A DNA stretch of 64,000 nucleotides from Schmidtea nova (taxonomy: Eukaryota): contig CM097882.1 in NCBI GenBank assembly GCA_044892505.1, positions 574,182,001-574,246,000 on the forward strand. Reading direction: 5' to 3'. Of this stretch, positions 29,943-60,970 are shown in pieces. Under the pieces are notes generated by a model, which was given only the letters and a program-made list of their open reading frames with translations, was not told where the DNA came from and did no database searches. Position 1 is the stretch's first letter, and each line of letters starts with the position of its first letter. The translations under genes and the position numbers were made by a program.

Positions 29943-32175
29943 TGTTGGGCCAGCCAAATCGAGCAGCATCTGAAAATAATATACAATCAATAAAATAAAG
30001 CTACAAAAAATAACAACAAAATAAATTACCAACATAAAAAGTAGCAAATGAGCGGCAACATCTAAAAGAAATAAAGTATTAATCAAAACAAAATAAATCT
30101 TCAAAACTCACTCATGCGAAGCAGATAAAATCTGAATATGACAGCGCGTGGGCGGATGTCACCAAAGACCTAAAACAAAATAGAATAAAAATTAAATCAC
30201 ACAAAAATAAACTTACCGCATGATTAAACAAATAAATCAGTGAGTTAAGTTAGGTAGCAAAAAGCCGACAACATGAAAAAATGAATCAAACATACACACA
30301 TACTCGATGCTGATTGGCTAACCAACAACACCGGTTGAGTATAAATACTGAAGTCAAATCAGTATTTGACAATGTCATTTTTACTGAAGGTAAATCAGTA
30401 CAACAGTCACTTTTACGGAAGACATTGTAAAACCGATTGGAAGCCAAATACAAGTATGGTTGAGTTTTATTGTTAATTATTTAAACCCTCATAATAATCA
30501 TAATCATGTTAAAATCAATAAGGTTTTCCGGAGGCCTAACAGCCTGACGGATTCTTGGGCCTCTCAGCGCAACACATTTTCATGTGAGGTGCTGATGCGG
30601 CGGGACCATAGGTGTACTAAATATTTGGTAAGCGGAGGGGATTAGATGCACATAGGGTATCGAGTAAGACCTAATGATCATGAACTAAATCAAAGTAGAG
30701 ACGGTCTAGTACAAACGCTATGCATCACGATAATAGGGTATCTAGAAAAGTAAAGATAATTGAGCACAAATGTCATGTGTCGTAGTAATACCGTAATGAA
30801 GGGTAGGTATATGTAACAAGGAACATCGGTGACGACGATAGTAGGGTCATGCAAGCCATAAGTAAAACGAGTTAAGAGGCGAATAATACCAGTGTCGGAG
30901 GTTAATAATAAATAACAATGGTTTTTTCAACACCAGCTTGCAACCCTCGAAAGGTACGAGAGGTAAGCACCCCTAACAAGAAACGATAGTGTGACCAGTC
31001 TCAAATCAGTCTGAGTAAGTGATTGCTCGTATTCCCCGGATAATATGATCATTGGTAGTTAATGATGATGTTTGAGAATAAACCTGATGAATGATTGCGA
31101 ATGATCACTAAAAACATAAACATAAAATTGATCGTAAATAGTGACGTCCAAACATAAGAAACGGTTGAATGAATACGGTTGATGAAACCAAAATTTAATA
31201 TCACAAACGACTAAGTAAATTATGCGTGGCCAATCAGCTGGAGCAAACCGGTAGAGTAAATGCATTCACCAACAAAATGGTAAAACACGACCTACATTGT
31301 ATCACAAACATCTGTCCGGTACAACACTGAACTACCTACTGAGACCTATAGAAAATTAGACACTAAGTCGAGTGGGTCGACTGAAATATATAACGATGCT
31401 CACTGATAAGGACTGTCAATTGATCCAGTCATACTATTCAGAACGATATGATGAAAATTGAAAGAGACCTAATGAACCCGGTAGTTCCCCCAACCGTCAA
31501 GGCGGAAGAGTATATCTTTCGGAGAAAACGGCGCATCCGCTCCGTCATCAGACCCAAAGCGCATTTTGAAATTCAAGGAGAAAGAGAGGCTCCACGCCGG
31601 ATTCTCGAGTTAGCACGCCGTCATCTGCGCCGATGGATGAGGACCTACATGAGTGCAGCCGCCGATATTCCAGCCTGCGCCTTCAAAATACAATTGAGGT
31701 GGGAAGGCGACACCGATTGGGTGTATTCCTCGGATCCTGCCGAGCCAAGAACCGACCGATGGTTCTACCAATTCCTCGATGAACAGAATCGACCCCGTTG
31801 GTTACTGAGTACTGGAATGATGTCGGGAAGGGCTCTACATCAATTAGGATACGTGCTGCTAGACAGGCCTCGGTGTCGCTACACTGAGGAAGTCTTCGTC
31901 TACTCGAACGCTCCAGGAAGCGTCTCCACGGAACCCTATCTGGAGCCCAAGGATCTTCGTCTCTGGGAGGTGTTTATCTACCGCGATAAACTGAGTTGGA
32001 ACCCGGCCCCAGAGATGTATTTGGAAAACGGAATTCGCCGCGACGAGAATCCTGCCGATCAGGAATTGCGAGCATTCAGTTGATCGACACAGCCCGAGAA
32101 AGAATGTTTGTTGTAAATATAAAAATAAATGTATTTGTGTGAGAATGGTCTTGTTTTGGTTTCGAGCGTATGAGA
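29943..32175 (+). mobile_element. Divergent, partial sister copy of the giant element's LTR, in the opposite orientation
   Basis: Begins TGTTGGGCCAGCCAAATCGAGCAGCATCTG, identical to the reverse complement of the sequence ending at 38147. The first ~450 bp are highly similar, and similarity fades after the ORF-A paralogue's AATAAA. Confidence 0.85.
31448..32083 (+). CDS. LTR-encoded ORF-A paralogue, 211 aa, unknown function
   Basis: Gapless alignment to 35980-36615 gives about 140/211 (66%) identity by manual count. Confidence 0.8.
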   Translation: MMKIERDLMNPVVPPTVKAEEYIFRRKRRIRSVIRPKAHFEIQGEREAPRRILELARRHLRRWMRTYMSAAADIPACAFKIQLRWEGDTDWVYSSDPAEPRTDRWFYQFLDEQNRPRWLLSTGMMSGRALHQLGYVLLDRPRCRYTEEVFVYSNAPGSVSTEPYLEPKDLRLWEVFIYRDKLSWNPAPEMYLENGIRRDENPADQELRAFS

Positions 32176-34084
32176 ACATCATGATGATGAGGTATAGTTG
32201 TGTTGGGCAAAAACCACAATTTGTTTTAAACAAACGATAACCCCATAGGTAGAGAGCGCGCAAGATTCAGTTTTAACCCAAATATCCTATAAAAATCGAA
32301 ACGATTAAGTGAAAAACAACAAAAAGGAAGTGGACTCAAAACACATCAACCAGTAGAGAACGCGCTAGCTGTGACTCTGAAAGCCCTTACATTGAAACCT
32401 AGAGAAAAATCAAATGCCATCAAAAGAAGAACGTTTAAAAGTTAGAATAGGCGGAAAACCCATTGAAAATACCTATAAAAAACGAAATTGTGTTATAAAA
32501 CCTTCATGCAGAAAAATTTAACAAAGATTTTAGCCGAAAATCGTGATTTTATCAAAATATTTCACATTAACCATAAAAAGAATTAATATTAATCGAAATA
32601 TCGTAAATTAAATCAAATCGAACAAACTTCTATTCAAAAACAAAAATTTGGAATTAAAATAAATTATTTGTGTTTTATAAAAAATTATTACACAAAAATA
32701 TGGATTTAATTTTCGGAAAATCATTAGAATTAATTTAGAAAAATTAAATGGAAAATTCTAGAACAATTTGTTTTATTACACTGGTGAAGGTGACGAAAAT
32801 CGACGGTATATATACCGCCATCAAAATGGCAAGAATCAGAATTTGTTGAGTTTTTGTGAAAAATTTTCGGTCTAAAAATTTTACAAAATTATTGTTTATT
32901 AAACTTTATTAATTTTTGAGAAGAAACCACACGAAGCGTAAGGTTTATTTTTTTTATTATTATCATCTTAATTTTGTATACGCGTTATCGGCATGGGATG
33001 CCCAAGAGTCATGCCCTTTGGACCTCCCATGTCGGCACAGTTCTTATTTATTTTTATGTCATTTAATTCATTTATTGTATTCTTTTATCACTGATAATAT
33101 AGGATTATATCAAAAAAATTTGTTTTTATTTTATTTATTATTATCATTATTATTTTATACTTCACAAATTCCCATAATAAACAAAAAAAAATTTTTAGTA
33201 ACTCAAACTATTAAATAAATAAATAAATTTTTTTTTATTTACTTCCTTACCCCCTGAAGCCTGTGTCTGGCCTTGCGCCGATCGGGTGGAAGTAGCCTGA
33301 GCGGATCGCTGGTTCGATACGTAAATTGATCAGTCCATTCGTCCGAGTTCAGGTGATTAGCCTAACCATCCATGCTCACTTCATCCCAACTGGGGAACAG
33401 TGGCTTGGCCCAAGGCAAGGTGTTATATTAATGATATTTATTTATAATAAATGTAGCTTATCCGAATTTATAAATTTTAATATATTGAAAAGTAATACCA
33501 CATGAAAACGTAAAGACAAATCTCTCCAACAATGTCTTTTCCATTAGGAAAATTAATTATGCAAAAACATTTTACTCGTCCTTCGCCTTCACCTTCACAA
33601 TAATTTTCTTCTCATCCAAGATCCAGAATATTAAAAACCGATATAAAAAAGTAAATCGTTCGAATTAATGCTCAAATCCGATGGAATAATAATGAAACCG
33701 AAATTAACTTTATTCGATGTCGAAAAAATTTCGTTGAAAAATTTATAACTTATTTTTATTTAGCATATAAAATTTTTTAGATTAAATGCTTATTTAGATT
33801 TCGGAAAATACGGATGAAAAATTTACTATTATGTGAATTTCGTTCCGATCAAAAAATGAAAATTTACTTTTTATTATATTGGAAAAATTTTTATAATGAA
33901 AAATTGTGAACCAAAAATTCTCCGAATATTGTTATGATATAAAAGATTTTGTTATTTTATAAAATTCCTAAGAATTTATAAATCAAAATTTATCTTTGAA
34001 ACCCATAAAAATTTTTTAAAATCAAAAATATTATTATTATAATGAAAATTTTATCATTTCAGAAAATCCAAAATTTCAAAATTT

Positions 34085-34561
34085 TATAGGAAAAATTTTT
34101 ACTATGTATATATATATACTTAAAATATAAAAATTCGAATATAAAAATTCATATTATAAAAATTAGAAATGGTATTATTATATTATTAAAATTATAAAAA
34201 GCATTATAAAAATTTATAATATAAAATTGGGAATTCTATTAGTATATCATTTTCATAAAATTATAAATTTAAAACTTATAAAAAGTATTGTAAAAATTTA
34301 TATTATAAAAATTAGAAATTATATTACTTTCATAAAATTATAAATTAAAAAATTTATAAAAGTATTATAAAAGTGTATATTATGAAAATTATCAATTTTA
34401 TTATCATATTCATAAAATTATAAATTATTGTAAAAATGTGTATTATAAAAATTAGAAGTTTTATTATCATATTTTTATAAAATTATTTATGAAAAGTATT
34501 ATAAAAACTTATAATTTAAAAATTGGAAATTTTATTATTGTATTATTTTCGTAAAATTATA
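34085..34561. repeat. AT-rich degenerate satellite next to an assembly gap
   Basis: Repeated TATTATAAAA(A)TTAGAA / CATAAAATTATAAAT units running into the N run. Confidence 0.75.
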
Positions 34562-34693: not shown

Positions 34694-35224
34694 TATCTCA
34701 AAAATCATATTGCATCCCTATTTGCAAAAAATTACATCCATTTCATTCAATAACATTTCCCATACTAATACACAAGCAACATATATTTAAAATACAATAT
34801 ACACACATACACAGTATCATTTATTAGCATTCAATAGTTATGCTGGTGTGTTGGTTAGATTGACAACTGAGATCATTAGGATTTTATCTGTTAGGGTGAT
34901 CTCGCCAACATAAAAACATTTCCCCCGCTGACACCCATGATGTATCCCTAACTACTCATCATGTTGGTGCTGTGTCAACGTTGTGAAATGACAAGGCAGG
35001 TGAGCAACCTTTCGGCTACTATTCCCTTGTTTATTCACGGGTCCACCACTACCGATAGAAGGTGTTTGTGGCTTTCTTTCGGTCCCACTTATGCTCTTTA
35101 CTTTGCTCTAGGGTAAGTTAATTTCAGCGCATCTGCAGTTTAAATGAATCCGGGTTTTATCTACCTTCAATTTTCAGACATTCCACAAACAAACAAGACA
35201 AGTCAAATCATTCATTTTATACAT

Positions 35225-35788
35225 TTATTTATAGTTTAATAATACCGAGGGTCGGATTACATTTAGTAGTTCTTGCTCGGATAGACCACTGAGCAAGTCT
35301 ACCTCTATCCCTACGCGATCCGCATATGCGCGTCTCTCCCTACGCTTTTTCGCTCCCAAGCGATTCCGTCTCTTTGTTCGTTTCGAGCCTTCCAGAATTA
35401 TTGGGGACGTTGGGGTAGTTGTGATTGGGATGGTTTCTATTTCCGTTTGGGTACTTGTTGTCATCGATATGGTGTCCACCCACCGATTAAAGGTGCTAGC
35501 CCTGATCACTGGGCGTAATTGCTCGGTGATAAACTCCTGGGTTGATGCCCTCAAGTAATTCGACAGCTCCATCTTTAGTGCTGCTACCTCCCTAGCTTGC
35601 TCGTCGATTGTTCGTTCCGCCCTGTATCTGGCTTGCAGGATGGTTTTAACCCTCTCTGGGTTGAACCACGTGGCTTTAATTCGCTGGTGCTCGTCGTTTA
35701 GCTGCCGCAAGCGGTTTTCTAGGACTCGCGATCGTGCTTTATGCTCTTTTGCCTCTTGTTTGTAGTTCCTAGTTGGATGTTCACTCAT
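35225..35788 (-). CDS. LTR ORF-B (187 aa from ATG MSEHP): coiled coil plus Arg/Lys-rich C-terminal motif
   Basis: Intact in both LTR copies; YAG acceptor 2 nt before the ATG; AATAAA overlaps the stop. The ORF track's start at 35860 is a TTG. Confidence 0.7.
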   Translation of the reverse strand: MSEHPTRNYKQEAKEHKARSRVLENRLRQLNDEHQRIKATWFNPERVKTILQARYRAERTIDEQAREVAALKMELSNYLRASTQEFITEQLRPVIRASTFNRWVDTISMTTSTQTEIETIPITTTPTSPIILEGSKRTKRRNRLGAKKRRERRAYADRVGIEVDLLSGLSEQELLNVIRPSVLLNYK

Positions 35789-35979
35789 CTCTGTAAAATG
35801 TATCATTAATCGGGTTATGTATGGTTTGTCTGTTCTCTCAGTCACTATCTTTATTATCAAACAGGTGTTTCACTCTCAGATCGCCTCATACATTCAAAGA
35901 CATAACAAAACCCAAAAATTAATACATTTATTTTTAATACACATCAAATATTCCTTCGATGGATCGGTTTCCTTGCGAT

Positions 35980-36615
35980 TTAAATGAAGGGTCGTAATTC
36001 CTGATCGGCCGTGTTCTCGTTACGACGGATTCCGCTTTCATAGTATAACTCCGGGGCGGGGCTCCAACTTAACTTGTCCCGAAAGATGAATACCTCCCAG
36101 AGGCGTAGATCCTTGGGCTCGGGATGTTGATCTAGTGATACGCTTCCTGGCGCGTTTGAGTAGGCGAAGACTTCCCCAGTGTCGCCACACCGAGGCCTGT
36201 CTAGCAGTATGTATCCGAGTTGATGTAGCTCTTTTCCGGACGTCATTCCGGTACTTAGTAACCAGCGGGGTTGCTTTAACTCATCGAGGAATTGATAAAA
36301 CCATCGGGTATTTTCCGGCTTGATACGACCCGAGGAGGGTACCCAATCGGTATCTCCTTCCCACCGCAACTGTAGTCCAAACGCGCAAGCTGGGGTGCTA
36401 GCTGCTGAGCTCATATGGGCCCTCATCCATCGTCGTAGGTGGCGACGTGACACTTCGACAACTTTTCGGGGTGCTTCGTTCTCTCCTCTGATATTTGGGT
36501 TCGTATTTGGTCTGAGGACGGAGCGGGTGCGCCGTTTCTTACGGAGGATGGTATTCTCTATCTTTATAGGGTACGCGACCATCGGCTTCTCTTGATAACT
36601 CTCCAGTTTCACCAT
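35980..36615 (-). CDS. LTR ORF-A, 211 aa, unknown function, basic N-terminal motif RKKRRTRS
   Basis: Intact in both LTRs and conserved in the sister LTR. TATAAATA at 36673-36680, acceptor TTCTTTAG 7 nt before the ATG, AATAAA at 35927-35932. Confidence 0.8.
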   Translation of the reverse strand: MVKLESYQEKPMVAYPIKIENTILRKKRRTRSVLRPNTNPNIRGENEAPRKVVEVSRRHLRRWMRAHMSSAASTPACAFGLQLRWEGDTDWVPSSGRIKPENTRWFYQFLDELKQPRWLLSTGMTSGKELHQLGYILLDRPRCGDTGEVFAYSNAPGSVSLDQHPEPKDLRLWEVFIFRDKLSWSPAPELYYESGIRRNENTADQELRPFI

Positions 36616-37738
36616 GGTATTTCTAAAGAAGATGGTTGTTTTTAATCTACGGATTCTACGGCAGAACGGACCTATTTATATTAGTCAACCCACCCGTCTT
36701 AATTATGAAATTTTGTAGGTCCGAGGGGTACCTTCTGTGGTTTTGCCGGATCATTGTTGGTGGCTGGACGTGGGTCGTGTTAGATGATAGCTTGAACTAA
36801 TGTACTCCGCTTTTTATTTCGACGATTCAGCTACGCACGATTTGTTACAGTTGTTAATCATATCGCTATTATACTTAATATTCATCAATCAGGTTCAATC
36901 ACTCAACTACAACCGGTTTTATTTATTGGTAATACTATTTATCACATTCAATCTCATCAGTCGTTTTCGATTACTTCCTCATTTAACTAGTAATGATCAT
37001 GCCATGTCGGGTAATCCCCGTAAGTTCCTGGGGTCCTTACTCCCTGGGGTTCATCATTTTATCGGTTCTCAATGCCTGTAGTTTATTTATCATCTCTCCT
37101 GGCGACTAAACACAGCTGACAGAGGTTATCGATTATCCTTAACCCTTGATACTAGGTTCACTATGCTCGAACTCGTACGCGCTAATGTTGACATATACCT
37201 ACCCTCGTCGTCACCTAATTCATCTGCACTAATATTATTCACTGCACGTATATCCCTCGTCTAGACTTCGCCACGATATATATCCTTCCCATAAAACGGG
37301 CTTCACTTTGCGCTCGTTTACGACTACTAGTTTATACTCGATACCCTATCATTGTGATGCCAAACGTTTATATTAGATCATCTCTACCTTGATTTCGTTC
37401 ACGATCATTAGGTCTTACTCGATACCCTATGTGCATTCAACCCCTTCCGCTTTCCAAATATTTAATACACCTATGGTCCCGCCGCATCAGCACCTCACAA
37501 CCGAAAGGTTGTGTTGCGCTGAGAGGCCCCAAGAATCCGTCAGGCTGTTAGGCCTCCGGAAAACCTTATGGATTTTAATATGATTAACAATTATAATTAT
37601 GAGGGTTTAAAGCAACAATCGAACACACAACAATTACCTTTTATTTTTTCTCCAAGTTGGTTTTACAATGTTCTCAGTGCTCAACTGCAAGTCACACTTG
37701 GTAAAAAATGGCATTGTCAAATACTGATTTGACTTCAG

Positions 37739-37746
37739 TATTTATA
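37739..37746 (-). promoter_or_regulatory. Candidate LTR TATA box (TATAAATA); copy in the 5' LTR at 63893-63900
   Basis: Identical in the sister LTR (~30339-30346). A CCAAT in reverse orientation lies ~25 nt upstream, and a candidate donor AAAG|GTAATT follows at 37637 (63791). Confidence 0.55.
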
Positions 37747-38876: not shown

Positions 38877-38949
38877 TTCTGATTATTCTACTGATTAATA
38901 CCTGTTACATCGATTTGTACATTTTTACACACGGATTTTTCGCCTCTTT

Positions 38950-40110: not shown

Positions 40111-40199
40111 TCTGCAATTTACAAATTTACACTTGTTACACTATGCGTTTATTGTTGTTGTCGATTTTTACAATTTATTTACAGGGTCGTTCACTCTGA

Positions 40200-41612: not shown

Positions 41613-41702
41613 TCTACAACAATATTTACATCAATTTCCCCATATTTTTGATTTTTTCTGGTTCTTTATTTACACGTATTTACACAATTTTCCGCTTATT
41701 CA

Positions 41703-42053: not shown

Positions 42054-42174
42054 CGTTTTCTAGATTATATACATCATTCTCTTTTTCTGTTTTTATGTTT
42101 TATAATATTTATACCCATACGTATACGGTTATGCATTGGTTTTTACACTACTATTTACACTCATATTCCACCCT

Positions 42175-51100: not shown

Positions 51101-54100
51101 GCTTGTCCTCTATGGAATAAGAAATCCATTTTATTATTCACATACAAGTGTAGCTTGATATCCATTGTGTCGATCTTGGGTTTCGCATTCGGCACTTCTT
51201 GTTTCGACACGTATATTCCTGGATAGTTTGTTTCGTATACTGTTGTACTGCACTTAAGGGTTGCTTTCCCTTTTATGAATCTCATTCCCACATCCTGATT
51301 TGTGGTTATCAACACTGTTGGTGTGGTTCTCATCTCTATCCGTTTTTCTCTATGATCCGGTTTCAATTGTCTTTTATTCTCTAAAGCCTCTTTGAGATGT
51401 TTTGCTCTAGCTTTGTCATCATCGTCTTCTTCTTGGAATGTTTTCCCTTGAATTTCGTCAAACTTTGCTCCTTGTAGCAGTTGTAATTGACATTCGTTCA
51501 CTTTCGGTTTGTATATCAATGTTGACATTCCCGTTTGACACATGCTCCTGTCAATTTTACACATGGATAACGTTTTCATTTCTCCTGTTGTCGGTTCGAA
51601 GAATGCTTCGTAGCTTTTCAGTTCGACTATGTATGTGTCCATTACCACTAAGTTGGTTGCAGGTACTCCAAATATTGGGTAGGTTTCTCCTTGACAATAT
51701 CCTTCTCCTCCCGTAATCCGTCCTGCTACATAATATGTCTGCTGTAACATCATTCCTGGCTTTCCTCTTATCTTGATTTTATCTCTTGTTGTTACTTCTC
51801 CATGTTTGAATAATGCTTCACAGTCTTCTCCTTGCAACACGATTGGTTCTCTTTCCGTTCCTGGCATGACAATTGCTGAATAATGTCCTCTCCCGCAATA
51901 GAATGCGAATCTCGTCTTTTGCACTTTGCATTCATTCACCATTGTCTTTATTAGTTCTGCCTCTTGATACACGTGGTACCATTGTTCCTTTTTAATCTCT
52001 CTCAACTCTACTGGAGTTGCATCTTTGCATTGCTCCGTACCTCTCAATGAGTACTTTTCTCCTAACTTCATTTGATCACAATCAAATACCTCAAATGTTG
52101 TTACACCTTCCGTGCTTAACAACCATACTAACATCATCATGATTATCGAGTTTAAATTCAACGTCGATCTTCCGTTTCCTTGCATCGTTTGTCTATTCTC
52201 CATTTCCCTCAATACTCCTTCGAGTTTCTTTCTCATCACGTTAGCACCTTCTTTTGTCTGGTTTTCTTTTACAAATTTTTCCCATCCTCCTTTTCTGAGG
52301 ATATATGGTTCAATTTCCTTCTCCATAATCATCGCCGTATTTTTGATATGTCTTCCCATCGGACTTGACTTCGGACTCCCTCGGCTTAGCGTTAGTAGAT
52401 TGTATATCGTATACGAGATTGCTACCAGATATTTGCTATCCGTCTCTGCTCCGTTAAGTAGCCTTTTTATTAACATCGTGGTTCCTTGCCAATCTAGATG
52501 ATTCGCTTTTGTTTTTGCCTTTATCAATTCTGGCATAATCGGTGCTATCGCATTGTGTAGCATCCTTGCCTTTGTACTGGGTTCGTTTATCCGCCACAAA
52601 TTCTTTAATTCTGGATCAATTATCGCTAACACATCCATTATCGTTTTGGTGAGCCATTCCTCTCCTTGGCAGACTTGATTCTCCTCTTTTCCTCTGGTCT
52701 CTGCGATTTTATCCAGTTTCTTCAAGCAAATCTCCCATTGCTCTTGTCTCCTTTCTTCTCTTGACTTTGGAATTGCTGTTGCTGGATCTATCTTTGGTCT
52801 TCCTCTTGGTCGTTTTTCCATTCCAGTTCCGGTTTCTACAAATCTCGTTGCTCTTCCTGTTTCTTCCGTAACATCCCTTCCTTCGTTTGCTCGTTGTTCT
52901 AACCATCTTTCCATTTCTTGAGTAAACTGTGGTTGTTCTTGCTCGTCTTCCGAATCGTTTACCATTTCTATGACTACCTCCTGTTCCACTCCTTGATCGT
53001 CGATTTCTGCTGGTGACGTTATTGGCATCTCTATTATTCTGTCGAAAATATTCGCCGTTGGTTTTTGAGTCAACTTCGTTAGTTCTTCTATCGCTTCGTC
53101 ACTGTCTGTTAGTATCTCATCGACGTCATACGCTTCTGGCGGTGTTCTCTCTCTCGTTTTGATTGGTGTTGTCCTTGTTTGTCCCGAACTTGTTCCTGGG
53201 GTCATTGTTGACTTCATCGGACTTGGTGTACTCATGCTTCCTTTCGCTTTCTTTTCCTCTTTAAACTTCAGTGGTTGACCCACTATTTGTGCCACTGTTA
53301 GCGTATTCATTAGATCCAATTGCACTGGTGTCAGCCAGATTTCCAAACTATTATCCAACGATCGTCCTTGATGTTGCAGGTGGAATGGTAGTTCGTACAT
53401 CAGTTTCTCTTTAACACTTTTCACTTTTTCTGTTAGCATCACCCAAAACTCTTCTTTTCTCTGATTCGGATACATTATCCTCAAATGTATTTTTTGTGGC
53501 GTTTCCTCCGCAAACTCTTTGTTTCTCCACTTTTTTATTACATCGTCTAGTTGCTCTGGACACCACTCGTTAACTCTCTTGTATTCTGCTATCGCTTTAG
53601 CTACTTTTCTCAAGTTCGTTATGTCTTCTCCATTTGAGATTATAAATTGTGCTAAGCCTTTTATTGCTTGTCTTTTTCCCCGAGTATTTCCTCTCAACAG
53701 CTCGATCAATTCACTCGTTTTCTGTTTCTCCAGTTCTGCCCATATTACTGCAGTTTCTGGTCCGTCTAAGTCCGTTGGTAATAACCTCCTTGTTACCATA
53801 CATATCCGTTTCGTATTCCGTTCATGTCTGTCTTCTCCTTCCGGATCTTCTTCATACACGCCTCTTTTCACTTTCCAACATTTCTCTTTGTTATCCCATT
53901 GCTTCTCTACTGGCGTCAATCGTCGTCTGTTAAGATCCAATTCTCCCAATATTGTCTCCCATTCTGGCTTCATCTGCCAGTTCCGATAGATTTCTACTAT
54001 CTGTCTCAACTTGCGCATAACGTCCTCTTGTCGTGCCTTTTTCCTTTCCTCATCTTTTGGTGTTGCTCTTGGCACATCATCCATTCTGATGACATGTATT

Positions 54101-57060
54101 GTCTGATAATTATCCCATATGCCGATTTTATACGCTCGTCTTTCATCGCGTTCATTCAGTAGATGTTCTTTGTATTTTATAGCGATGTCATCCTCAAATT
54201 CGTCTTCCCGTTCTCGTTGTAATATCGTCTCATTGATGACATCTACTATTTCTCCCACTTTACTATCTGGTATTACCTCAATTTGTTTTGTCTCTTCGTT
54301 TGGTAATCTCACGGTAATCTTCAGATCTGATACCTCTCCTCGTTTAAACATTTCTTTTCCCATCTTTGCGATTAGCTTATCCGTTTTGAAATTTGAATGT
54401 CTCGTTTGACTTGTATCTCGTATGTTCTCGATACACTGTTTCAAATTCTCATACTCGCTTTTCGTCAATTCCTTTCGATGTTTCTTGATTTGTTGGATGA
54501 TCTGTTCTATCATCGTATTCAAATTCTCCGCCAAGATTCTTTCCTTTGCCTCCATCAACTGAGGTTTTATTCTCATCTCATAACACGTATTCGCTTCTTT
54601 GACGATTCCTTGTAAGTTCTCTTCCTTCTTGGTGTTGCATATTGATAACGTTGTTATTTCTCCTGGCCATATGCCTGTGTCTATCATATGCGTTCCTTTT
54701 CTCACCAATCCGTTTTCCGAATATATGAACTTGTCTTTGTACGAGCTTCCCAATCTGTCCTCAACCCATCGGTAAATTCCGTCTGTCATTGGGTTCCTTA
54801 TCCAGATTCTCGGTGAACACTCGTTTATCCATATCTGTATTATGTATTCGTTGAGTGGTTCTTTTAGAAGCTTCTCAATCAATTCTTGTATTACTCTCAC
54901 TTCTCTTTCTTGTAACCACTCTTTATACTTCATCTGCCATACTGCTCGTATGAACTTTCGGTATCGTTTCTTGTCAATAAACTCCTCGTTATGAATTACT
55001 TCCAACGCGTTATCCATCAGCTTCTGAATTTCGTCTTCCTTTACTGACATCGTTTCTATCGTCTCGACTACTTCCATCTTTTTATCCTCGTTTTCCGGTT
55101 CCTTTAGCATGTCTCCTGCCAGACTGCTAACTTCGCTGTCGTCTTCTTCATCTGACAACTCTTGTCTTGGGTGTCTCAGCATCCCAATATGCGCGGTTGG
55201 TCTCGCTTTGTTTTTGCTAACTTCTTGTATTAGTTCATTCTCGTTTCCTGTTACTTCAGCTTTTCCCATTCTTTTCTCCAATTCGTCTATTTCTTCCAAC
55301 CGTCTTCGTCTTATTTTTCCCTTGAATATTCGACTGATCCGAGTTTGGTGTTTCACTGGTGGTGGGATTTTTTCCGGTTCCACCTCTCTGATGATCATCA
55401 CGTTTATTTTCGTTTCTGTTACTCCCATATCTTCCCATATATCAGTCATCTTTAACTTCACTTCCGGTAAATCTTCTGTTTGTAGGAAGGCTTCTCTGGG
55501 CAGTTTCGTCACTCCCGGGATCATCTCATTTACTTTATTGAACAATCTTCCCACTTCTTCTTTTACATCGTACTTGAATCGCCACACGTGATCATTCGGC
55601 ATGATCACCAACATTCCTCTTTGTTTGATTCTCACCTCCTCTTCTTGATTCGTTTCTTTTTCTGTTTCTTTTTCTTTTTCTACTTCTTCATCCTTTTGAT
55701 TCTGCTCTGCGGCTTCTACTTCCTGATTCACTTCTTCTTGTTTCTGCTCTTCGTTTCTTTTCTCTTTAATTTCTAACTCGTCTGATTCATCCTGCTGCTT
55801 CTCTTCCATCATTGCTCGCATCATGTTGATCCTTGGATTTCCCTTTTTTAACTGTTGTAATCGTTGTTGTCTGACTTGTTCTTCTTCTCGTCGTACTCTA
55901 GCCCATTCTTGATTATGTTTCTGTTGGCTTTCTCTATTCTCCCTTTCGGCTTCAGCTTCTATTAACTGGATCATGTTTATCTTTGGTTGAGCAGCTTGCT
56001 GGCTTCCTTTTGCCATGCTTTCTATTATCTCGTGTAATCTGGATACCTCTTGTCTCAACTTTGCTTCTTTCATACTGGCTTCGTTTGCACTGCTGTTTGG
56101 GTTGTTCCGTTGTTGACCTTGATTCCCATAGCTTGGTCGATTCCCGTAATTCTGTCTATTTCCATTGTTTGACCAACTTCTCTGCTGATTACACTCTCTT
56201 GACATGTGTCCCGTTTTCCCACATGTATAACACGTTTTCACATAACATCGATTTTCTGAGTGACCTTTTTGTCCACACAGTTTACAGGCTACATTCTGAA
56301 AACAATCTTGTTGCCAATGTCCGTTTTTCCCACACGTCTGACATTGCCTATTCTGCCTGTCATTGTAACTATTTCCTCCATTCGTATTCACCGTAATATA
56401 TCCGTTATTCTTCCTCGCTGGCGGTTCTTTGAACAATCTCTGCGAATGGGGAATACTTTGATTCATGTTTCTTTTTCCTTGTTCTTCATCTTCTGTCGTT
56501 TTTCCCATTACCGCCGTAATTCTCATGTCATTCATTGCCATATGCAATTCGAATAGGTTGGCTGCTTCCAACGCTTCATCTACTGTTTTACATCCTTTGC
56601 ATCCCACTTGTGCTCTGATGTCAGGTCTCCTGAGACCTCGTACAAATAACGCTGTCATCAATTCCTCATCTACTGGGCTTCCTCTATTGAATGCCAGTTT
56701 CGCCAACTTCCTTAATTCACTTGCGTACACCGCATTTGACTCATTTCTCCTCTGTTTTCTTGCTGAGAACTCATCGAACGCTTCATTCAGCACTTTGTTT
56801 ATCCCAAACGTCTGTTGGAAGAATTCCTTGATCGCTTCCCACGTTCTGGGTGGATTACTTCCCGATCTCTTCTCAATATACAGATCCAACGCGCTATCTT
56901 TCAAGTATAGCGGGATTCGATTCGCTAACGTTTCTGCACTCCATCCGCATATATCCACGAATATGTCAAATTCCTTCAGAAACGTATCCAATCTACTGGC
57001 GTCTCCATTGAATGGTTCGCCCTTGAATTTTTCTCTCAGATCCTCTCTGTGTTCACTCAT
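42175..57060 (-). CDS. 4961-aa polyprotein: Gag, Ubl x2, Bcl-2-like, Env (class III), PR, RT, RH, IN, ANK, FN3-like x4, TM
   Basis: CCHC knuckles at 56191-56343; AMIDTGA at ~49710; YIDD at ~48495; LATDASG (RH); HDGKLGGH..CLTC, MDVVG, LTDQG, ERFN, GPY (IN). No stop or frameshift in 14.9 kb. Confidence 0.96.
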   Translation of the reverse strand: MSEHREDLREKFKGEPFNGDASRLDTFLKEFDIFVDICGWSAETLANRIPLYLKDSALDLYIEKRSGSNPPRTWEAIKEFFQQTFGINKVLNEAFDEFSARKQRRNESNAVYASELRKLAKLAFNRGSPVDEELMTALFVRGLRRPDIRAQVGCKGCKTVDEALEAANLFELHMAMNDMRITAVMGKTTEDEEQGKRNMNQSIPHSQRLFKEPPARKNNGYITVNTNGGNSYNDRQNRQCQTCGKNGHWQQDCFQNVACKLCGQKGHSENRCYVKTCYTCGKTGHMSRECNQQRSWSNNGNRQNYGNRPSYGNQGQQRNNPNSSANEASMKEAKLRQEVSRLHEIIESMAKGSQQAAQPKINMIQLIEAEAERENRESQQKHNQEWARVRREEEQVRQQRLQQLKKGNPRINMMRAMMEEKQQDESDELEIKEKRNEEQKQEEVNQEVEAAEQNQKDEEVEKEKETEKETNQEEEVRIKQRGMLVIMPNDHVWRFKYDVKEEVGRLFNKVNEMIPGVTKLPREAFLQTEDLPEVKLKMTDIWEDMGVTETKINVMIIREVEPEKIPPPVKHQTRISRIFKGKIRRRRLEEIDELEKRMGKAEVTGNENELIQEVSKNKARPTAHIGMLRHPRQELSDEEDDSEVSSLAGDMLKEPENEDKKMEVVETIETMSVKEDEIQKLMDNALEVIHNEEFIDKKRYRKFIRAVWQMKYKEWLQEREVRVIQELIEKLLKEPLNEYIIQIWINECSPRIWIRNPMTDGIYRWVEDRLGSSYKDKFIYSENGLVRKGTHMIDTGIWPGEITTLSICNTKKEENLQGIVKEANTCYEMRIKPQLMEAKERILAENLNTMIEQIIQQIKKHRKELTKSEYENLKQCIENIRDTSQTRHSNFKTDKLIAKMGKEMFKRGEVSDLKITVRLPNEETKQIEVIPDSKVGEIVDVINETILQREREDEFEDDIAIKYKEHLLNERDERRAYKIGIWDNYQTIHVIRMDDVPRATPKDEERKKARQEDVMRKLRQIVEIYRNWQMKPEWETILGELDLNRRRLTPVEKQWDNKEKCWKVKRGVYEEDPEGEDRHERNTKRICMVTRRLLPTDLDGPETAVIWAELEKQKTSELIELLRGNTRGKRQAIKGLAQFIISNGEDITNLRKVAKAIAEYKRVNEWCPEQLDDVIKKWRNKEFAEETPQKIHLRIMYPNQRKEEFWVMLTEKVKSVKEKLMYELPFHLQHQGRSLDNSLEIWLTPVQLDLMNTLTVAQIVGQPLKFKEEKKAKGSMSTPSPMKSTMTPGTSSGQTRTTPIKTRERTPPEAYDVDEILTDSDEAIEELTKLTQKPTANIFDRIIEMPITSPAEIDDQGVEQEVVIEMVNDSEDEQEQPQFTQEMERWLEQRANEGRDVTEETGRATRFVETGTGMEKRPRGRPKIDPATAIPKSREERRQEQWEICLKKLDKIAETRGKEENQVCQGEEWLTKTIMDVLAIIDPELKNLWRINEPSTKARMLHNAIAPIMPELIKAKTKANHLDWQGTTMLIKRLLNGAETDSKYLVAISYTIYNLLTLSRGSPKSSPMGRHIKNTAMIMEKEIEPYILRKGGWEKFVKENQTKEGANVMRKKLEGVLREMENRQTMQGNGRSTLNLNSIIMMMLVWLLSTEGVTTFEVFDCDQMKLGEKYSLRGTEQCKDATPVELREIKKEQWYHVYQEAELIKTMVNECKVQKTRFAFYCGRGHYSAIVMPGTEREPIVLQGEDCEALFKHGEVTTRDKIKIRGKPGMMLQQTYYVAGRITGGEGYCQGETYPIFGVPATNLVVMDTYIVELKSYEAFFEPTTGEMKTLSMCKIDRSMCQTGMSTLIYKPKVNECQLQLLQGAKFDEIQGKTFQEEDDDDKARAKHLKEALENKRQLKPDHREKRIEMRTTPTVLITTNQDVGMRFIKGKATLKCSTTVYETNYPGIYVSKQEVPNAKPKIDTMDIKLHLYVNNKMDFLFHRGQASLQKVYYDLINNDCILNREILKTKLAVAITNPDSAMPLLPLREGHFGRVVGEAMYVYICEKTHASLAATTQLKPGQCTNELEIDYKGKVRYVQPVTRIINPPGFEPNPFNCSNAYGPLYQKPDGKWVMFPGRTEVLAPREFELMQLSKDRQFSDVDVSNNGIYSPKDLEAARQNILFPARREALLSNIVTITGGTNYREGPNYELLLSPAHFKKATENMMKAMWGRFLIFGQMMAGILGVILIIQIVRVIITQMLACFDIYKREKKVNWKMVVGFLPFLAKTMVLHGHSKDIHRIKRLLKILAKMRGTNEDVGRKFKKIMQDEQARRQLKKERKGLWERMRGYRTQDDSSNDDDDDDDRGGQANINQIPQYTEKSAVENWRYSAPPQSMYNEPIYKAKPNMMQMMPMTSIYPIIPEGCKVKRGKSVDSLEDTHTIAVMSTNMGPILTTTVEINGREIEAMIDTGANISAIDINYIPEKNQGEIEKTNVHVIACSQETVEVAGRWFVKIKHRGAEINTYIAVIPSLSVPCIIGTDLMPDLFKEIVIDLGAMKLKDRTGKICRMKVKVASAEQIVVPARHEMMCYVKIDSTIKGDMIFEPSKKFEAKKELPMARELVTINQEGEIPINLVNFDEEDKIIYENERLGKLTPMSEIEIPDKNEKSKDELPWKIDSVLLDERQKEQLQKLLMEYKDIFAASDLDLGTCDVTLHTIPLTDETPIALRPYKLAEAQKAVAEEEVQKMLDAEVIEPSCSPWQFPVVMVKKKDGTQRFCIDYRRLNAVTKRDTYPLPDINEMLLTLQGAAYFTSLDLKSGYWQIKMKDEDKEKTAFTIGRDLYQFKKMPFGLTNAPASFQRCMNFVTHGIKQCMVYIDDLLIYSATFEDHLQDIRNVFVKLRQWKLKLKPSKCDWAKEKVTFLGHIVSAKGKEPDPRNIEKVKECPPPKTVTQIQEFLGLCGYYRKFIKDYAGISKPMQELVRQDVSFIWGIEQQAAFETLRDKLITAPILVHPDFKKPFLLATDASGYAAGAVLGQFDEGGKERVIGYYSRTFRKHERNYSVTEREAYAIILAIKHFKYLLWGHEIYITTDHQPLVWLGQHKESSSRLMRWAMQLQEYSPFIKFKAGKANANADCMSRFTFPELVNLNALKICALIAEDLDFSELRKDQLEDEELGLISKYLKEREMEIFGKNQVLREHMQKYQHRYVMEKGWLLIQDGERRLMCLPANRRKEIMTQYHDGKLGGHMSAKKTIGRLRQKYFWPTMEDDVKEWIKNCLTCATRKNVGTKWKTPLKPMPIPAEPMATIAMDVVGPLPESLKGNQYILVVTDYLTKFPEAFAIPDQKAKTVARILVEEICCRYGTPKKILTDQGTNFMSEILDEVTNYFRIAKLRTSPYHPQTNDQTERFNGTLIRMLSNYVSKHQTDWDEYINLCLMAYRMSIHAATKLSPFQLMYGRDCNLPIDLEYQPPLSQYMEVDDYVTKFKERMQEIWKTAELNIKFYQESYKDLHDQKKNVKAHELKVGDWVIIETPEIIPGTVKKLQRPGKGPYEITTVNENNVRVRLVNNPLVRPIYVNACRCRKIPKTATLSPEKRVMTRSQTARINMLRVQQKPQTSLEDNRREIIDIKELAKKTREIIPEWRWWHDFHILSEVRKNVMEYAKDRTAHPITRTLLEEIPQTLNLQDKDGNTALHNAIKHGGNEKVKEIMEMILEGGGEIDKVNWEGITPLMMMTIHGRNNEIIKLFGNTRSNWMTKDKEGRTFLNHAIDRANHRILKYITENATWEIDELTRGSIMKQAIGVKNSKTWRILLKWKRPEGDSWVIDCNEVFTKGENTLLKHLLEVTYDPKTLAVLIARDTLRVSENPREYKLEDRKKELFGLIKKWCDKQWNPDMSFEHFYDIQKQHKEISKRYKELVEALKYGQFFRQAVYQDQRMKQMQTRIRSKAVLFNAKADHQERLDAIVAKAQEKLSEFKENKNSLEILGAITEKMHRYAQGDYNEIDIETIKNQIPVAFLLSKDGRLPIHWALRRKKENEVLEITKTMVKCEADMNTVDDNGDTIMIIAARKKTKLKVLNELYEAGAKIEGKNGKNNSIIDIAIQWNNFEMIKFMKSIKKQDDIEYLANNVKNFSLTVMIHDIEKTRALLTWVNPITKEPVFKINDHMEQNQNWCIRSALLRHKKPEIVEEFLKRRDLKFTNNPREQERMGRWKDLFRKYVNEWANAKEAIKQSRLKDIEPSKDMEIREFESSTLAVQTYERLIEGINVEDDIFKGPGGGYRDFDDKSNNEKNNEDNDNKRTEDNEKERQEEPKPTRNDKKGEAEERENSGTKDERTNYGKRTGSLLLRPEMLCIAILITIIGQGEAKKQYVTLEIIRGNEVYERICWKENLKKNDTLKCILSDLKRDVIQIKGLEKEKSYIICAIKQRGEPKAPQVTACQLYKATEALKIQKWIEKRSEETTRRTEVESEKGKNQSEAEEGIRNRTEKERITKNPAGKLTFQPELICVALILILIKRIMEDIDISVMTLVNIQDQRTTNGRCWGRNNEVIGISETRESRKAETNEEIEITEIETDKKYELCLMEKAANGNRPGTSECKVFQAKEIIEFPKRKKQDQETIANEVVTVEIKNIGRRTIGMCWRKYIGVSTNNIIPQCRTRERGIPFQLNGFEVGQTYEICVIRRIREIIQRSSECKLYKTPEQINGTRTIEMGGSRQRKRKSKRTTTTNSQGVQQATTERTTIENEPESTTLIIWKIHKKVLEICWTLMPNSMGKSPRNCQKTSNDKKEIIEVEMRKLKTNAEYEVCAIEEVDTQGNPQERCETYYTPIKRRIKKLEFRELSQKREQNEKEETIPNQQEKWEPEKVIEKVRRRQQQYEQWEAEWKGQYGVMINQSETPRMSIGKTVMGLISMGVFIACIPLITIMIVCWRYGMRNKTIAVKWPDVKVMNYNIKLPKEVREELKRRSKHEEMWVQIEDEELYEGKPVIVV
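50245..52160 (-). other. env: Envelope domain: chuvirus/Monjiviricetes-type class III fusion glycoprotein
   Basis: Internal signal LNSIIMMMLVWLLSTEG; FEVFDC..YSL...C; CGRGHYSAIV; LAVAITNPD; GEAMYVYIC; CTNELEIDY...YVQPVTRII; GIYS..DL..ARQNILFP; TM at ~50345-50425 followed by an amphipathic segment. Confidence 0.8.
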
Positions 57061-57938
57061 CCCGATTCCACTGTCTTGGAATACTGTACTAATTTTCTTT
57101 GCTTCTAGTTCACCACTTGTTTCTGAATTTGACTTTTCTTCTTCACTACTCTCTGTTTCGTTATCTCTTGATTCGTTTCTTGTTCTGTTTTCCCTGACTA
57201 GTTCACTGTCTATCGTCTCTACTTCGTTTTGTACTGCTAGATCTTCTGGGGTTTCTTCTTGGTTCTCTTTATTACTCGAATTATCGCTGATCTCTACTTG
57301 TTTGTTCTTTTGTTGCTTCGGCTTGTTACCTGTTCTTGTCCTTTTTGCTGCTTTTCTTTCTGCTTCCGTTAAGATTGGTATTATACCTGATCTTGTTTCT
57401 CGTCCCTCAATTTTGTCTATTCCTCAACTGCTTATATTCTCAACTGCTTTTCTACTCCGCTTTTGCTTTGCTTCTTCTTTGATTTGTTTCTTTTGATTGC
57501 TCTGACTGCTAGATTGCTTTGAATTGCTTGATTGATTTGTTTCCTTAAAACAAATAATCACTTACACGATACGTCCCCGTTATCGTGTTTCTCGTCCCTC
57601 TCACGGGTGTAGTCATAATTCATGAAGATCCCCATTTTTCCCATTTCCCTTGATTTTAAGTCTATTTAAATTATCTATGCAGTCGTATCAATTATCTATT
57701 CTTTATCAAATGCACCAATTACTTTTCCCCAGTTTCCCAATTACTTTGTCGCTCAGCGCTCTTATTATTCCCTTTACTTTTTCTCAGGCTTCTCTGGCTC
57801 TGAGTTCAAATCTCCCCTTATCTGTCAACTACTCTATTTCTCAACTATTCGCTTTATCTCTTGTTCGCACTACGTTTACTACTTCATTTCAATTCTCCTC
57901 TCTACTCACCTTTAATTTCAACTGACATCTCTCGTTGG

Positions 57939-58958: not shown

Positions 58959-59982
58959 AAAACATGGTTGTTATGATGGTTTTGCTTACTGATGGAAACT
59001 CTTTGCTCCGGGGCTTATGTTCCCCGATGAGAACTATGCTCACTGATGGTGACTACAGGAATTATGTTTCCTGATGAGAACTAAGCTCACTACGATGACT
59101 ATGTTTATTAATGAGAACTACGCTCCCTGATGAGGACTATGTTCGCTTGTCTTGTGTTTATTAATGAGAACTCTGCTCACTACGAGAACTATGCTCACTA
59201 TGGTGTTGTGTTTTATGACGAGACCTACGCTCACTAGGATGTTACGTTTTATGACGAGACCTATGCTCACTATGAGACCTATGCTCACGAACGAAAACTC
59301 GAAATATCATCTCTCAGTGGTTGCATGTGTTGCTTCGGGATGTTCCTCCCAGTGGTCACTTATGCTTCTTCGGAGAATCTATTGTCGCGTTTCGTTAAGT
59401 TCTATCTTTCAAGAACTATGGGCAAATCCTTTCTCTCTAGGACCCCTTTTATCATTTCCTTTCTTTCAAGGATTTCCTTTAACCTCGAGTTTTCCATTGA
59501 CTCGGTTCATCTGTTATACCCCTTTATTCTATTATCGATTCGTCAACCTTTCTACTTGATTTTACCTTATGCGAGCTGATTACGTGCCTTTCATCATATA
59601 CCACATTTATCCACTTTTAATATTCATTTCCTCACTCTCCTTCTCTACTGATCAGTTTATCTTCCTATTTTTATAGTTTTTCTGCGCGCGCCTAACCTCA
59701 TTGAGTTGTCCCTACCTTTCACCCCAACCAAAATATATAAAAAGATCGCATTGGTCCACTGATGCACGATGTGGTGATCAGTCACATCACAAGAGCTTTC
59801 CAATATCCGCGATTGGATCCCTTTCTACACATCTCGGGTGAGTTGATCAGTTGGTTCCCCCCAATGGGTGCTTAACGGACTACTCGTAGGTAGCTCATAA
59901 TTACTTAGGTCATTTTTACCAAATCATTTTTAAACCCTCATAATTTCAATAACAACTGCACTTGTTCCAAACTTTATTTCTA

Positions 59983-60441
59983 TTACAAGTACACTGTTAT
60001 TTTCTCGGATACGGGAAGGTTGCACATAGGACATCGTTCGTTTATTTTACATTCATTACAGAATCGAAAATGCCCACACGGCAACAACATTATCTGTATT
60101 TTGTTTATTTCACAGATGTAACACGTCAAATACTGTCTCGTATATTCGGTTGTCGTTCTTATCCACTCATCGTGTTTTGTTGCAATCTGTTGTTCTAGCC
60201 TGTGGCACTCGATATTCATTTCAGGGTTGTTTAATCGCTCTCTATACCACTGATATCGTGTTGCTGTATCCACTGTTATCTTATTCTCGCTTATGCTCAT
60301 CATTATTTCAGCTCTTTCTGTGTTGTTTGTCGGTTCGTGATATCCTCCTACCTCGAGTTGTTTTAACTTTCTCATTACTGTCTCCACCGCCTCGTTGTTT
60401 GTCTCGAAAAACGTTTGCATTTCTTTTATTTTGTTCTCCAT
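59983..60441 (-). CDS. 152-aa protein with a C-terminal IAP/MDM2-type C3HC4 RING
   Basis: CYICEINKIQIMLLPCGHFRFCNEC...CPMCNLPVSEKITVYL at the extreme C-terminus; CAG 3 nt before the ATG; AATAAA 5 nt after the stop. Confidence 0.85.
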   Translation of the reverse strand: MENKIKEMQTFFETNNEAVETVMRKLKQLEVGGYHEPTNNTERAEIMMSISENKITVDTATRYQWYRERLNNPEMNIECHRLEQQIATKHDEWIRTTTEYTRQYLTCYICEINKIQIMLLPCGHFRFCNECKINERCPMCNLPVSEKITVYL

Positions 60442-60970
60442 CCCCTGAATGGATTCTCATTAATTTTGTTATCGATTTTTATTTATCATTTATTATTCCT
60501 ATTCTATGGTAGCCCTACTGTTCGGTTTTTGTTGTTCTATTTCGCGCCACTGCGTATCCCCCCGTGTTCTTGAATGTCGCCCCGACATGATCATTGTTAG
60601 TTGCTCACACTCATACCATTTTCATGCACACTTTTCAGCATACTTTTACCTTACGTCATGCATACTTTTCATCACTTTTCATACTGTTATTCCACATACT
60701 ATTCCTCATACTTCATTCATCCCCATACTTACATTCCATTATCATTCATACTTTCATTCTCATGCATACTTTCATCACGTTCATCAATCTCATTATTTTG
60801 CACTCATACTTTTATTTATTATTTTTCAACCCGATTCGTTCTTGCTTCAGGACCCTCAAACCCTCTATTATTTACTTTACTTTTCCTCGCTAAATTCAAT
60901 TCATCCCGGTTCAGGCGCTCTAAACTGTCCGCAGATATCGAATTCACTTTTTCCCACAAAGATCGATTTA

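Follow-up and report, generated by a model that had tools for sequence, protein, structure and literature searches.

Candidate splice acceptors ahead of the accessory start codons of a giant Burro-like retroelement in Schmidtea nova

The stretch of Schmidtea nova DNA analyzed here (the window, 64,000 nucleotides) contains an intact Burro-like Ty3/gypsy element, 29,461 bp between its LTR ends, in which a single gag-env-pol-ankyrin ORF of 4,961 aa is accompanied by seven accessory ORFs. More than a thousand Burro-like candidate copies were found in the genome. The two LTRs of this copy were 100% identical across the 3,009 nt compared, the target duplication at the 3' LTR is the 4-bp TAAC, and the insertion site is an LTR of family B/D; empty-site contigs at 34841 were found in sequencing runs of unrecorded library type. 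The LTR start, TGTTGG, was read in L001. The main features are as follows, with gaps counted from AG to ATG.

60995..64000, minus strand: 5' LTR, 3,307 bp, extending 301 bp beyond the window end
62134..62779, minus strand: ORF-A, 211 aa, within the LTR (ATG 62769; TAG, gap 7 nt; copy at 35980-36625, ATG 36615)
61379..61947, minus strand: ORF-B, 187 aa from its second ATG (61942; CAG, gap 2 nt), within the LTR; copy at 35225-35793
60971..60988, minus strand: primer-binding site, which we take to be tRNA-Pro-like; the identical 18-mer follows the family B LTR
59973..60447, minus strand: RING ORF, 152 aa, in the leader (ATG 60441; CAG, gap 3 nt)
42175..57423, minus strand: polyprotein ORF, open from 57423, with its first ATG at 57060 giving 4,961 aa
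41703..42053, minus strand: 116-aa ORF (ATG 42053; gap 6 nt)
40200..41612, minus strand: TRAF-like ORF, 470 aa, with RING, TRAF zinc finger and MATH (gap 1 nt)
38950..40110, minus strand: coiled-coil ORF (name from the first-pass annotation), 386 aa (ATG 40110; gap 1 nt)
38352..38876, minus strand: predicted membrane protein, 174 aa, hydrophobic stretches by eye (gap 2 nt)
34841..38147, minus strand: 3' LTR
29943..32200, plus strand: truncated LTR of a sister variant, S1
31448-32083, plus strand: ORF-A', in the S1 LTR, with CAG 6 nt 5' of its ATG

Pfam searches identified a CCHC Gag, a fusion glycoprotein, protease, RT, RNase H, integrase and ankyrin repeats in the polyprotein, with the env domain (PF24664, aa 1908-2249) in frame ahead of the protease at aa 2435; the YAG nearest to its first ATG is 10 nt away. 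Burro (GYPSM1) comprises giant Ty3/gypsy elements of dugesiid planarians, and, in the portion of PMC6431247 available, shares with the window element a polyprotein of ~5,000 aa with Gag, PR-RT-RH-IN and ankyrin repeats, an in-frame env between gag and pol, and MATH/TRAF, its accessory domains being either fused or separate ORFs. Unlike in that description, the present element measures 29.5 kb (close to the mark of >30 kb), its TRAF gene is a separate ORF 3' of the polyprotein, and two ORFs sit within the LTR. BIR and Bcl-2, both features of Burro, had no Pfam match at E 0.01 in the window element; BIR is present in family B, and the six Bcl-2 matches trace to family E only. The class label is Burro-like, not one of the named families Burro-1 to -4. 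Burro-like elements belong to the largest LTR retroelements, and their cargo includes apoptosis and ubiquitin genes; the papers found give no account of how these genes are expressed, and the same portion of PMC6431247 contains none for the accessory ORFs of Burro. Nine env-bearing elements were set aside as relatives, being smaller and without accessory arrays, and a derivation of family B from family D by splicing was unsupported, with patchy identity of 71-87%. ORF-A fell into no Pfam family and its homologue search was blank, while a look-alike search with ORF-B, which has an Arg-rich stretch close to its C-terminus, gave nothing significant and nothing >0.79.

The first-pass annotation had reported a YAG directly ahead of eight out of eight accessory ATGs. 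All eight contexts are present in the sequence, but the count was overstated. ORF-A' is homologous to ORF-A (nucleotide identity 75%) and so a duplicate. In ORF-B the quoted site lies ahead of the second ATG, the first in-frame one (61960) lacking any YAG in the nearest 22 nt. The strict count is therefore 6/7 first ATGs with a YAG 1-7 nt upstream. Against a background of 128/642 sense-strand ATGs of the element (20%), this gives a binomial p = 3.7e-4. By alignment, the second ATG of ORF-B is common to two LTR variants, with differing upstream ATGs, and the RING CAG was present in 9/9 other copies.

The same layout was found in diverged elements. Family B has no blastn match to the window element and 28-41% protein identity (38% between the 116-aa ORF and a 211-aa ORF, 28% between the 386-aa coiled-coil ORF and a 515-aa ORF), and there a YAG stood at 0-7 nt in 7/8 ORFs versus 85/452 background ATGs. 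All four scored ORFs of lineage F (background 124/488) and the one ORF of family E also had a YAG, and families A, B and E pooled gave 14/16 first ATGs (binomial p = 5e-8). These counts omit an ORF-A homologue in L115, whose start was unplaceable through decay, and an ORF-B homologue in L116, where the YAG fits only at the second Met. As the homologous sites of A, B and F have a common origin, their recurrence reflects conservation and not independent origin. Chance combined with a choice of convenient ATGs is suggested by the one second ATG and one duplicate among the eight quoted starts and by the ~20% background, yet it is hardly credible in view of the pooled count, the 4/4 in lineage F and the independent acceptor score below; the out-of-sample families had already largely refuted it.

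The distance between AG and ATG varied between homologues (RING 3/2/0, with 0 in family B and 2 in lineage F; 116-aa ORF 6/7/3; TRAF 1/2/1), and only 5/16 gaps were divisible by three. Because the gaps shift out of frame, no upstream AUG would be read in frame. The AGs might instead be gene-capture relics or translation-start context, with small internal promoters driving the genes, and TATA-like words do occur 60-75 nt upstream of ORF-A and of the 116-aa ORF. We regard this as improbable: YAG, T at -5 and the upstream T-rich tract persist while the gap and the surrounding sequence vary across lineages, and they are wanting in other ORFs of the fetched loci (6/47 with YAG, or 4/45 when two family B genes are removed) and in tubulin genes (2/11, by eye).

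An acceptor matrix was built from 17 host introns of 42-61 nt, all from tubulin, a single gene family; left out were three putative introns at unconserved positions, two whose alignment scored low and one not ending in YAG. Ranked among 781 YAGs, none of the seven window AGs fell below the 86th percentile (p = 5e-5); compared with 187 non-coding YAGs, p was 2e-4. ORF-B had the top score of the element's set. The same matrix gave p = 1.5e-4 for the AGs of family B and the 92nd-99th percentile of 638 for lineage F, with weak scores for ORF-A' (71st percentile) and the family B BIR site (55th). T at -5 was found in 11/17 host introns, 6/7 window and 6/8 family B sites, versus 119/781 and 131/485 controls. 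Owing to the repetition in diverged, out-of-sample elements and the host-trained score, the reading of the AGs as selected splice acceptors, as first proposed, appears well supported.

Sequences that could supply a leader to such acceptors were found in and next to the LTR:

63877..63930, minus strand: candidate promoter, with an inverted CCAAT box CTGATTGG at 63930, TATAAA at 63900 and TCAGT at 63881; its function is presumed
63786..63799, minus strand: candidate major donor AAAAG|GTAATT, GT at 63791, directly after AATAAA at 63799
60644..60652, minus strand: second candidate donor AAG|GTAAAA, GT at 60649, 3' of the primer-binding site

The donor predicted ~100 nt past the LTR TATA was confirmed as a candidate, its GT (63791) lying 109 nt from TATAAA (63900), and it ranks first among the 168 GT sites of the LTR by a host donor matrix. 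CTGATTGG with a TATA 29-30 nt downstream was present in 5/7 LTRs examined; a similarly placed donor occurs in S1, L115 and L116 and, weakly (score 1.4), in L111, so that five LTRs combine the candidate promoter with a donor that lies 108-150 nt downstream of the TATA and is followed by T-richer sequence. The LTRs examined of families B and E had no CCAAT-TATA-donor layout, though their genes have acceptors. A third candidate donor, at 59565, is with 60649 the top-scoring in the 5' region; the former keeps its GT in 9/9 other copies and the latter is intact in 7/9. A GTAAGT at 60733 was dropped, as it is not conserved among copies. On the strength of the layout in five LTRs, we favor cis-splicing over spliced-leader trans-splicing: the YAGs are probably true 3' splice sites, and, on balance, the accessory genes are likely to be cis-spliced to a short, non-coding LTR leader exon.

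The ends of the ORFs bear on this choice. As the first-pass annotation had noted, several have AATAAA near the stop, and within -12..+70 nt of it the signal was found in 5/8 ORFs of the window element and in 14/18 ORF ends of three families, versus 12-26% of non-coding windows. In the RING ORF it lies 4 nt past the stop. Spacers between adjacent ORFs, all on the same strand, measured 71-265 nt from stop to acceptor (12/12); 9/12 contain AATAAA, and a U/GU-rich tract was clear, by eye, only after ORF-A, ORF-B and RING.

62040..62086, minus strand: predicted poly(A) site after ORF-A, AATAAA with a U/GU-rich tract, kept in S1 and L111
61330..61383, minus strand: predicted poly(A) site at ORF-B, AATAAA overlapping the stop, GU-rich tract
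42060..42174, minus strand: spacer 1, TGTA at +15 and +27 from the stop, candidate TAG acceptor at 42060
41614..41702, minus strand: spacer 2, TGTA at +18 and +28, AATAAA, candidate TAG acceptor at 41614
40112..40199, minus strand: spacer 3, TGTA at +16 and +27, AATAAA, candidate CAG acceptor at 40112
38879..38949, minus strand: spacer 4, TGTA at +20 and +28, candidate CAG acceptor at 38879

Such short spacers and frequent AATAAA are what would be expected if the AGs were host spliced-leader acceptors and a long transcript were cut at internal poly(A) sites, perhaps alongside cis-splicing. Planarians have spliced-leader trans-splicing, and the available part of PMC12582326 describes flatworm acceptors as often serving both cis- and trans-splicing and cistrons of Schistosoma operons as a median of 99 bp apart; an SL1-trans-spliced subgenomic mRNA is described for the gypsy element Cer1 in the text available of PMC3315495, and the family B acceptors exist without the LTR donor layout. 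On the other hand, a strong candidate donor is conserved upstream in five LTRs, and cis donors reportedly win over the leader (PMC4558846); spacers of the 3' array are rich in A, and the polyprotein, coiled-coil and membrane ORF ends lack AATAAA. Flatworm leaders end in AUG, which would be in frame at only those 5/16 gaps, and no retro-copies with an ATG before the TRAF exon were found. Trans-splicing is thus a possible but rather unlikely reading, and we are just as tentative about the fuller picture of an env-bearing giant retroelement whose 7-8 accessory genes form a spliced-leader-cut operon, each with a PUF-type element, the unspliced RNA being the genome.

The TGTA pairs have a fixed position, the first lying 14-20 nt past the stop in 10/11 spacers of 3' arrays (0/20,000 permutations). 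Their RNA form, UGUA(A/U)AUA, is presumably the PUF-type consensus. In the 71-265 nt spacers a GTAAAT occurs 15-21 nt past the stop, and the spacer could itself be a short intron (GTAAAT donor, AG acceptor) that leaves stop and ATG ~20 nt apart for re-initiation on a polycistronic RNA; host introns of 42-61 nt that start GTAA or GTTA are compatible with this. It is very improbable, however, as T precedes the GT in 47/47 motifs versus G or A in 17/17 host donors, the acceptors of ORF-A, ORF-B and RING have no GTAAAT motif, and the TGTA and GTAAAT are also present past the polyprotein stop of family D, where no ORF comes next. A role of UGUA as CFIm poly(A) enhancer was doubted, since planarian poly(A) sites are without UGUA (PMC5068929) and the motif also follows AATAAA-less stops. 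Its fixed stop distance points to an mRNA-level control element, undescribed for planarian poly(A) sites (PMC5068929).

Under the preferred reading, cis-splicing from one LTR leader, transcription would start near 63880 and the leader exon would end at donor 63791, although the donors at 60649 and 59565 may serve too. The leader would be joined to one of seven acceptors, placing that gene's ATG ≤7 nt from the junction and so making it the first suitable start codon. The mRNAs of ORF-A, ORF-B and RING would terminate at their own AATAAA, whereas a common end in the 3' LTR would serve the polyprotein and the four 3' genes and so leave them with long 3' UTRs. The UGUA(A/U)AUA pairs, 14-30 nt past the stops, are likely protein-binding sites acting on the mRNA, and possibly protect it against nonsense-mediated decay. 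All acceptors and poly(A) sites would have to be bypassed in the full-length RNA; our guess for a candidate export factor is the Arg-rich ORF-B. The layout thus predicts seven junctions, three internal poly(A) sites and one leader exon. Cis-splicing would involve introns of up to 25 kb, across several acceptors and AATAAA, while the training introns measured 42-61 nt, and the 71-265 nt spacers with AATAAA before the acceptor would also fit a trans-spliced operon.

Genomic retro-copies were searched for spliced products, all with weakly negative outcomes: the LTR donor joined to a purine-starting exon gave three matches, all unrelated (control 4), donor 60649 so joined gave 0, and donor 59565 gave two, both diverged elements with no junction. 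TRAF exons with altered upstream bases numbered 0, and no copy had a poly(A) tail after ORF-B. In four runs (library unrecorded, DNA-like), no splice-type ends fell at the AGs among the joints listed (15/22; 14). As these runs behave like DNA, given their empty-site contigs, the missing junctions speak neither for nor against splicing. Summed over contigs, depth peaked at the 3' end of the LTR (61027-61340), with a lesser peak at 63539-64000; with the library type unrecorded, this profile is given no weight.

We conclude that the YAG-ATG layout is a real feature and, as far as the sequence indicates, a probable variant form of complex-retrovirus-like expression. Complex retroviruses, HIV and HTLV among them, have one LTR promoter, a major donor and many acceptors ahead of the accessory genes. 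The window element differs from complex retroviruses, as far as the available excerpts describe them, in being Ty3/gypsy and not Retroviridae, in having 7-8 candidate acceptors across 25 kb, each ≤7 nt from an ATG, and in carrying accessory genes on either side of gag-env-pol. The adenovirus major late unit also joins one leader to many acceptors near start codons and has several poly(A) sites; the likeness is in layout only, to an unrelated DNA virus. Foamy viruses, in the portion of PMC3694450 available, have an LTR promoter, an in-LTR major donor beside a poly(A) signal and many accessory-gene acceptors, which the candidate sites here would resemble, but their donor lies upstream of the signal, whereas AATAAA precedes the candidate donor here. 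Cer1 of C. elegans, in the available parts of PMC3315495 and PMC10309623, is also a gypsy element; its subgenomic mRNA is spliced, occurs with and without SL1, and codes for a factor that exports unspliced RNA. Unlike the present element, Cer1 is an 8-kb unit with a single ORF, makes just one spliced mRNA and has no acceptor-headed gene array. Flatworm and nematode spliced-leader operons, from the available part of PMC12582326, share same-strand ORFs <300 nt apart and have a poly(A) signal followed by an acceptor, which the AATAAA in 9/12 spacers here may resemble, but those are host genes with proven leader junctions, while the present case is read from sequence and has a conserved candidate cis donor upstream. 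If splicing is in cis, a Ty3/gypsy lineage would have independently reached splicing of complex-retrovirus grade; if in trans, the host leader would be resolving an operon carried by a retroelement.

The window minus strand carries a single LTR retroelement, intact and 29,461 bp long, with LTRs of 3,307 bp each (100% identity over the 3,009 nt compared) and a TAAC target duplication. Its 4,961-aa polyprotein ORF encodes, in order, a CCHC Gag, a fusion glycoprotein, protease, RT, RNase H, integrase, and ankyrin repeats. This layout fits the description of Burro elements of dugesiid planarians in the available part of PMC6431247, and the host is therefore probably a planarian. A genome search with the accessory region gave 1,255 candidates, and the 37 that were scored had identities of 94 to 100%. 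The accessory ORFs are arranged as follows:

Within the LTR, same strand as the polyprotein: ORF-A and ORF-B
In the leader, same strand as the polyprotein: RING ORF
Past the polyprotein and ahead of the 3′ LTR, same strand as the polyprotein: 116-aa, TRAF, 386-aa (coiled-coil), and 174-aa (predicted membrane protein) ORFs

The element lies inside an LTR of families B and D (other giant elements of this genome), which itself interrupts a sister LTR at 29943, making three nested insertions (window 32201-34841, and beyond 64301 in the fetched locus L001). Two LTR variants (window 34841-38147 and locus L021) have both ends in common (87 to 97%) while the middle differs (ORF-A, 75%), and both were found on the same internal sequence, which points to old variants having recombined. 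Repeats in the leader comprise 12 copies of a 19-bp unit as well as an 85-bp repeat (window 58729-58956 and 57926-58423), and families B and D have another short tandem array at the matching place. Elsewhere (window 21710-23919), a reverse-transcriptase ORF of 484 aa has inverted repeats of 290 bp (91%) on either side.

A YAG, the candidate splice acceptor, was found 1 to 7 nt upstream of 6 of the 7 first ATGs of the accessory ORFs, compared to 128 of 642 ATGs on the sense strand of the element (p = 3.7e-4). The first-pass annotation had counted eight of eight; all the contexts it quoted are present, but the count itself did not stand. ORF-B has the spacing at its second ATG only, and ORF-A′, in the sister LTR, is homologous to ORF-A, has CAG where ORF-A has TAG, and does not count as a separate case. 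In an alignment, the second ATG of ORF-B and its TTTACAG were common to the window and sister LTR variants, while the upstream ATGs were not. The first ATG of the polyprotein, with a YAG at 10 nt, falls outside the pattern.

Acceptor quality was scored with a matrix from 17 host introns inferred at conserved tubulin-gene positions, a small set of short introns only. None of the seven window AGs fell below the 86th percentile among the element's 781 YAGs (p = 5e-5), and with the same matrix all seven also stood out against 187 non-coding YAGs (p = 2e-4). Acceptor scores were likewise high in family B (p = 1.5e-4) and in the related lineage F (92nd to 99th percentile); lower scores were seen for ORF-A′ (71st percentile) and the family B BIR site (55th). 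Furthermore, the gap between YAG and ATG shifts out of frame between homologues and is a multiple of three in only 5 of 16 cases, and the AG is therefore retained without an in-frame upstream AUG. Among the tubulin loci, intronless, decayed beta-tubulin copies (L082, L083, L086, L087, L091, and L096) have >100 nt of upstream sequence in common, as if co-amplified.

The spacing was also found in diverged relatives. Family B, reached via a BIR search, has 28 to 41% protein identity to the window element and no blastn match; its accessory gaps are 0, 2, 1, 5, 1, 3, 3, and 17 nt, i.e., 0 to 7 nt in 7/8 ORFs and 1 to 7 nt in 6/8 (background, 85/452). Four of its genes are without a full-length counterpart in the window, and the TRAF start in some copies has an in-frame ATG upstream. 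In the decayed copies of lineage F (61 to 74% identity over the central polyprotein), the homologues of RING, 116-aa, TRAF (start placed by homology), and ORF-B have gaps of 2, 3, 2, and 1 nt (background, 124/488). Family E contributes one LTR ORF, with a gap of 4:

Loci L067/L068, family E: 2.7-kb LTR with a 230- to 239-aa RING ORF, CAG 4 nt before the ATG

Among the fetched loci, ORFs of other types had the spacing in 6/47 cases (two being family B genes), as did 2/11 host tubulin genes (by eye). As homologous acceptor sites have common ancestry, what they show is conservation. We judge the YAG before accessory ATGs to be a real, conserved feature.

The high-copy family B (L025-L048) has a gag-protease-ankyrin ORF, with no RT, integrase, or env match, and eight accessory genes, one of them BIR-RING (IAP-like). 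It has its LTR in common with the autonomous family D, whose MATH domain lies inside the polyprotein. The family E RING ORF has TGTAAATAAA 40 nt past its stop.

In five LTRs (window, the sister variant S1, L115, L116, and L111), CTGATTGG is followed 29 to 30 nt on by a TATA box, and the top donor within the next 300 nt lies 108 to 150 nt beyond the TATA, with T-richer sequence downstream. In the window, this candidate is the common donor proposed earlier, at 63791, which outscores every other one of the 168 GT sites of the LTR; the donor in L111 is weak. In the window, S1, and L115, AATAAA immediately precedes the donor, recalling the donor-linked poly(A) suppression of foamy viruses (PMC3694450, in the part available). 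The promoter-donor layout was absent from the family B and E LTRs examined. Further candidate donors lie past the primer site, at 60649 and 59565.

Near the LTR 3′ end, CCTTCTATCGG(T/C)AG is kept in the window (61217-61203, minus strand), L044, L051, and L116, in LTRs of families A (that of the window element), B, and D and lineage F that are otherwise unalignable. Contig depth of unlabelled runs was highest over this region. A donor sequence of perfect AAG|GTGAGT form was noted by eye antisense to the family B LTR (L044, reverse strand, near 2155).

Judging from these sequence features, we lean slightly toward cis-splicing from the LTR leader as the way the accessory genes would be expressed. 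Spliced-leader trans-splicing at the same AGs, alone or mixed with it, seems rather unlikely. The short spacers from stop to next acceptor would suit it, as would the spliced leaders of planarians and flatworm acceptors with dual cis and trans use (PMC12582326, partial text), and the Cer1 mRNA is spliced to SL1 (PMC3315495, partial text); the conserved upstream donor, however, argues against it (PMC4558846, partial text). AATAAA lies near 14/18 stops, which favors trans-splicing, but its lack after 3 of the 5 3′ ORFs counts against it. No splice-type joints were found in four runs of unlabelled type, which are uninformative on splicing, and genome searches for retro-copies, whether spliced or polyadenylated, turned up nothing or chance matches only.

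The 3′ spacers contain 47 TGTA motifs, the first lying 14 to 20 nt past the stop in 10/11 spacers (0/20,000 permutations) and the second usually at +21 to +28. Thirteen match TGTAHATA, which we take to be the Pumilio consensus, compared to 2.7 expected. The pair also follows the polyprotein stops of lineage F and of family D, the latter with no ORF downstream, and is therefore linked to stops and not to acceptors. UGUA is reported absent from planarian poly(A) sites (PMC5068929, in the part available). We infer that the pair acts on the mRNA, e.g., by protecting long 3′ UTRs.

Ahead of its first ATG, the polyprotein frame is open for 100 to 150 codons without an ATG in families A and D and lineage F. 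The regions bearing on this and on the motif below are:

Window 57423-57061, minus strand
L021
L050, 8224-8523
L116, 7511-7969
L034, family B

I-D-K/N (ATA/ATT GAY AAN) stands at or near the head of the stretch in families A, D, and B, a candidate for a conserved non-AUG initiation site of Gag.

That Burro-like elements exist and carry accessory ORFs is already known, and Burro RNA is reported to rise on piwi knockdown (PMC8532177). Our literature search, including the available parts of PMC6431247, PMC8532177, and PMC11410931, found no account of their splicing, and the original Burro paper or its supplements may bear on the point; PMC6880638 and PMC10309623 (both in part) and PMC7346339 (supplements) added little. 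What appears new is a predicted variant, within a Ty3/gypsy lineage, of the expression layout of complex retroviruses.
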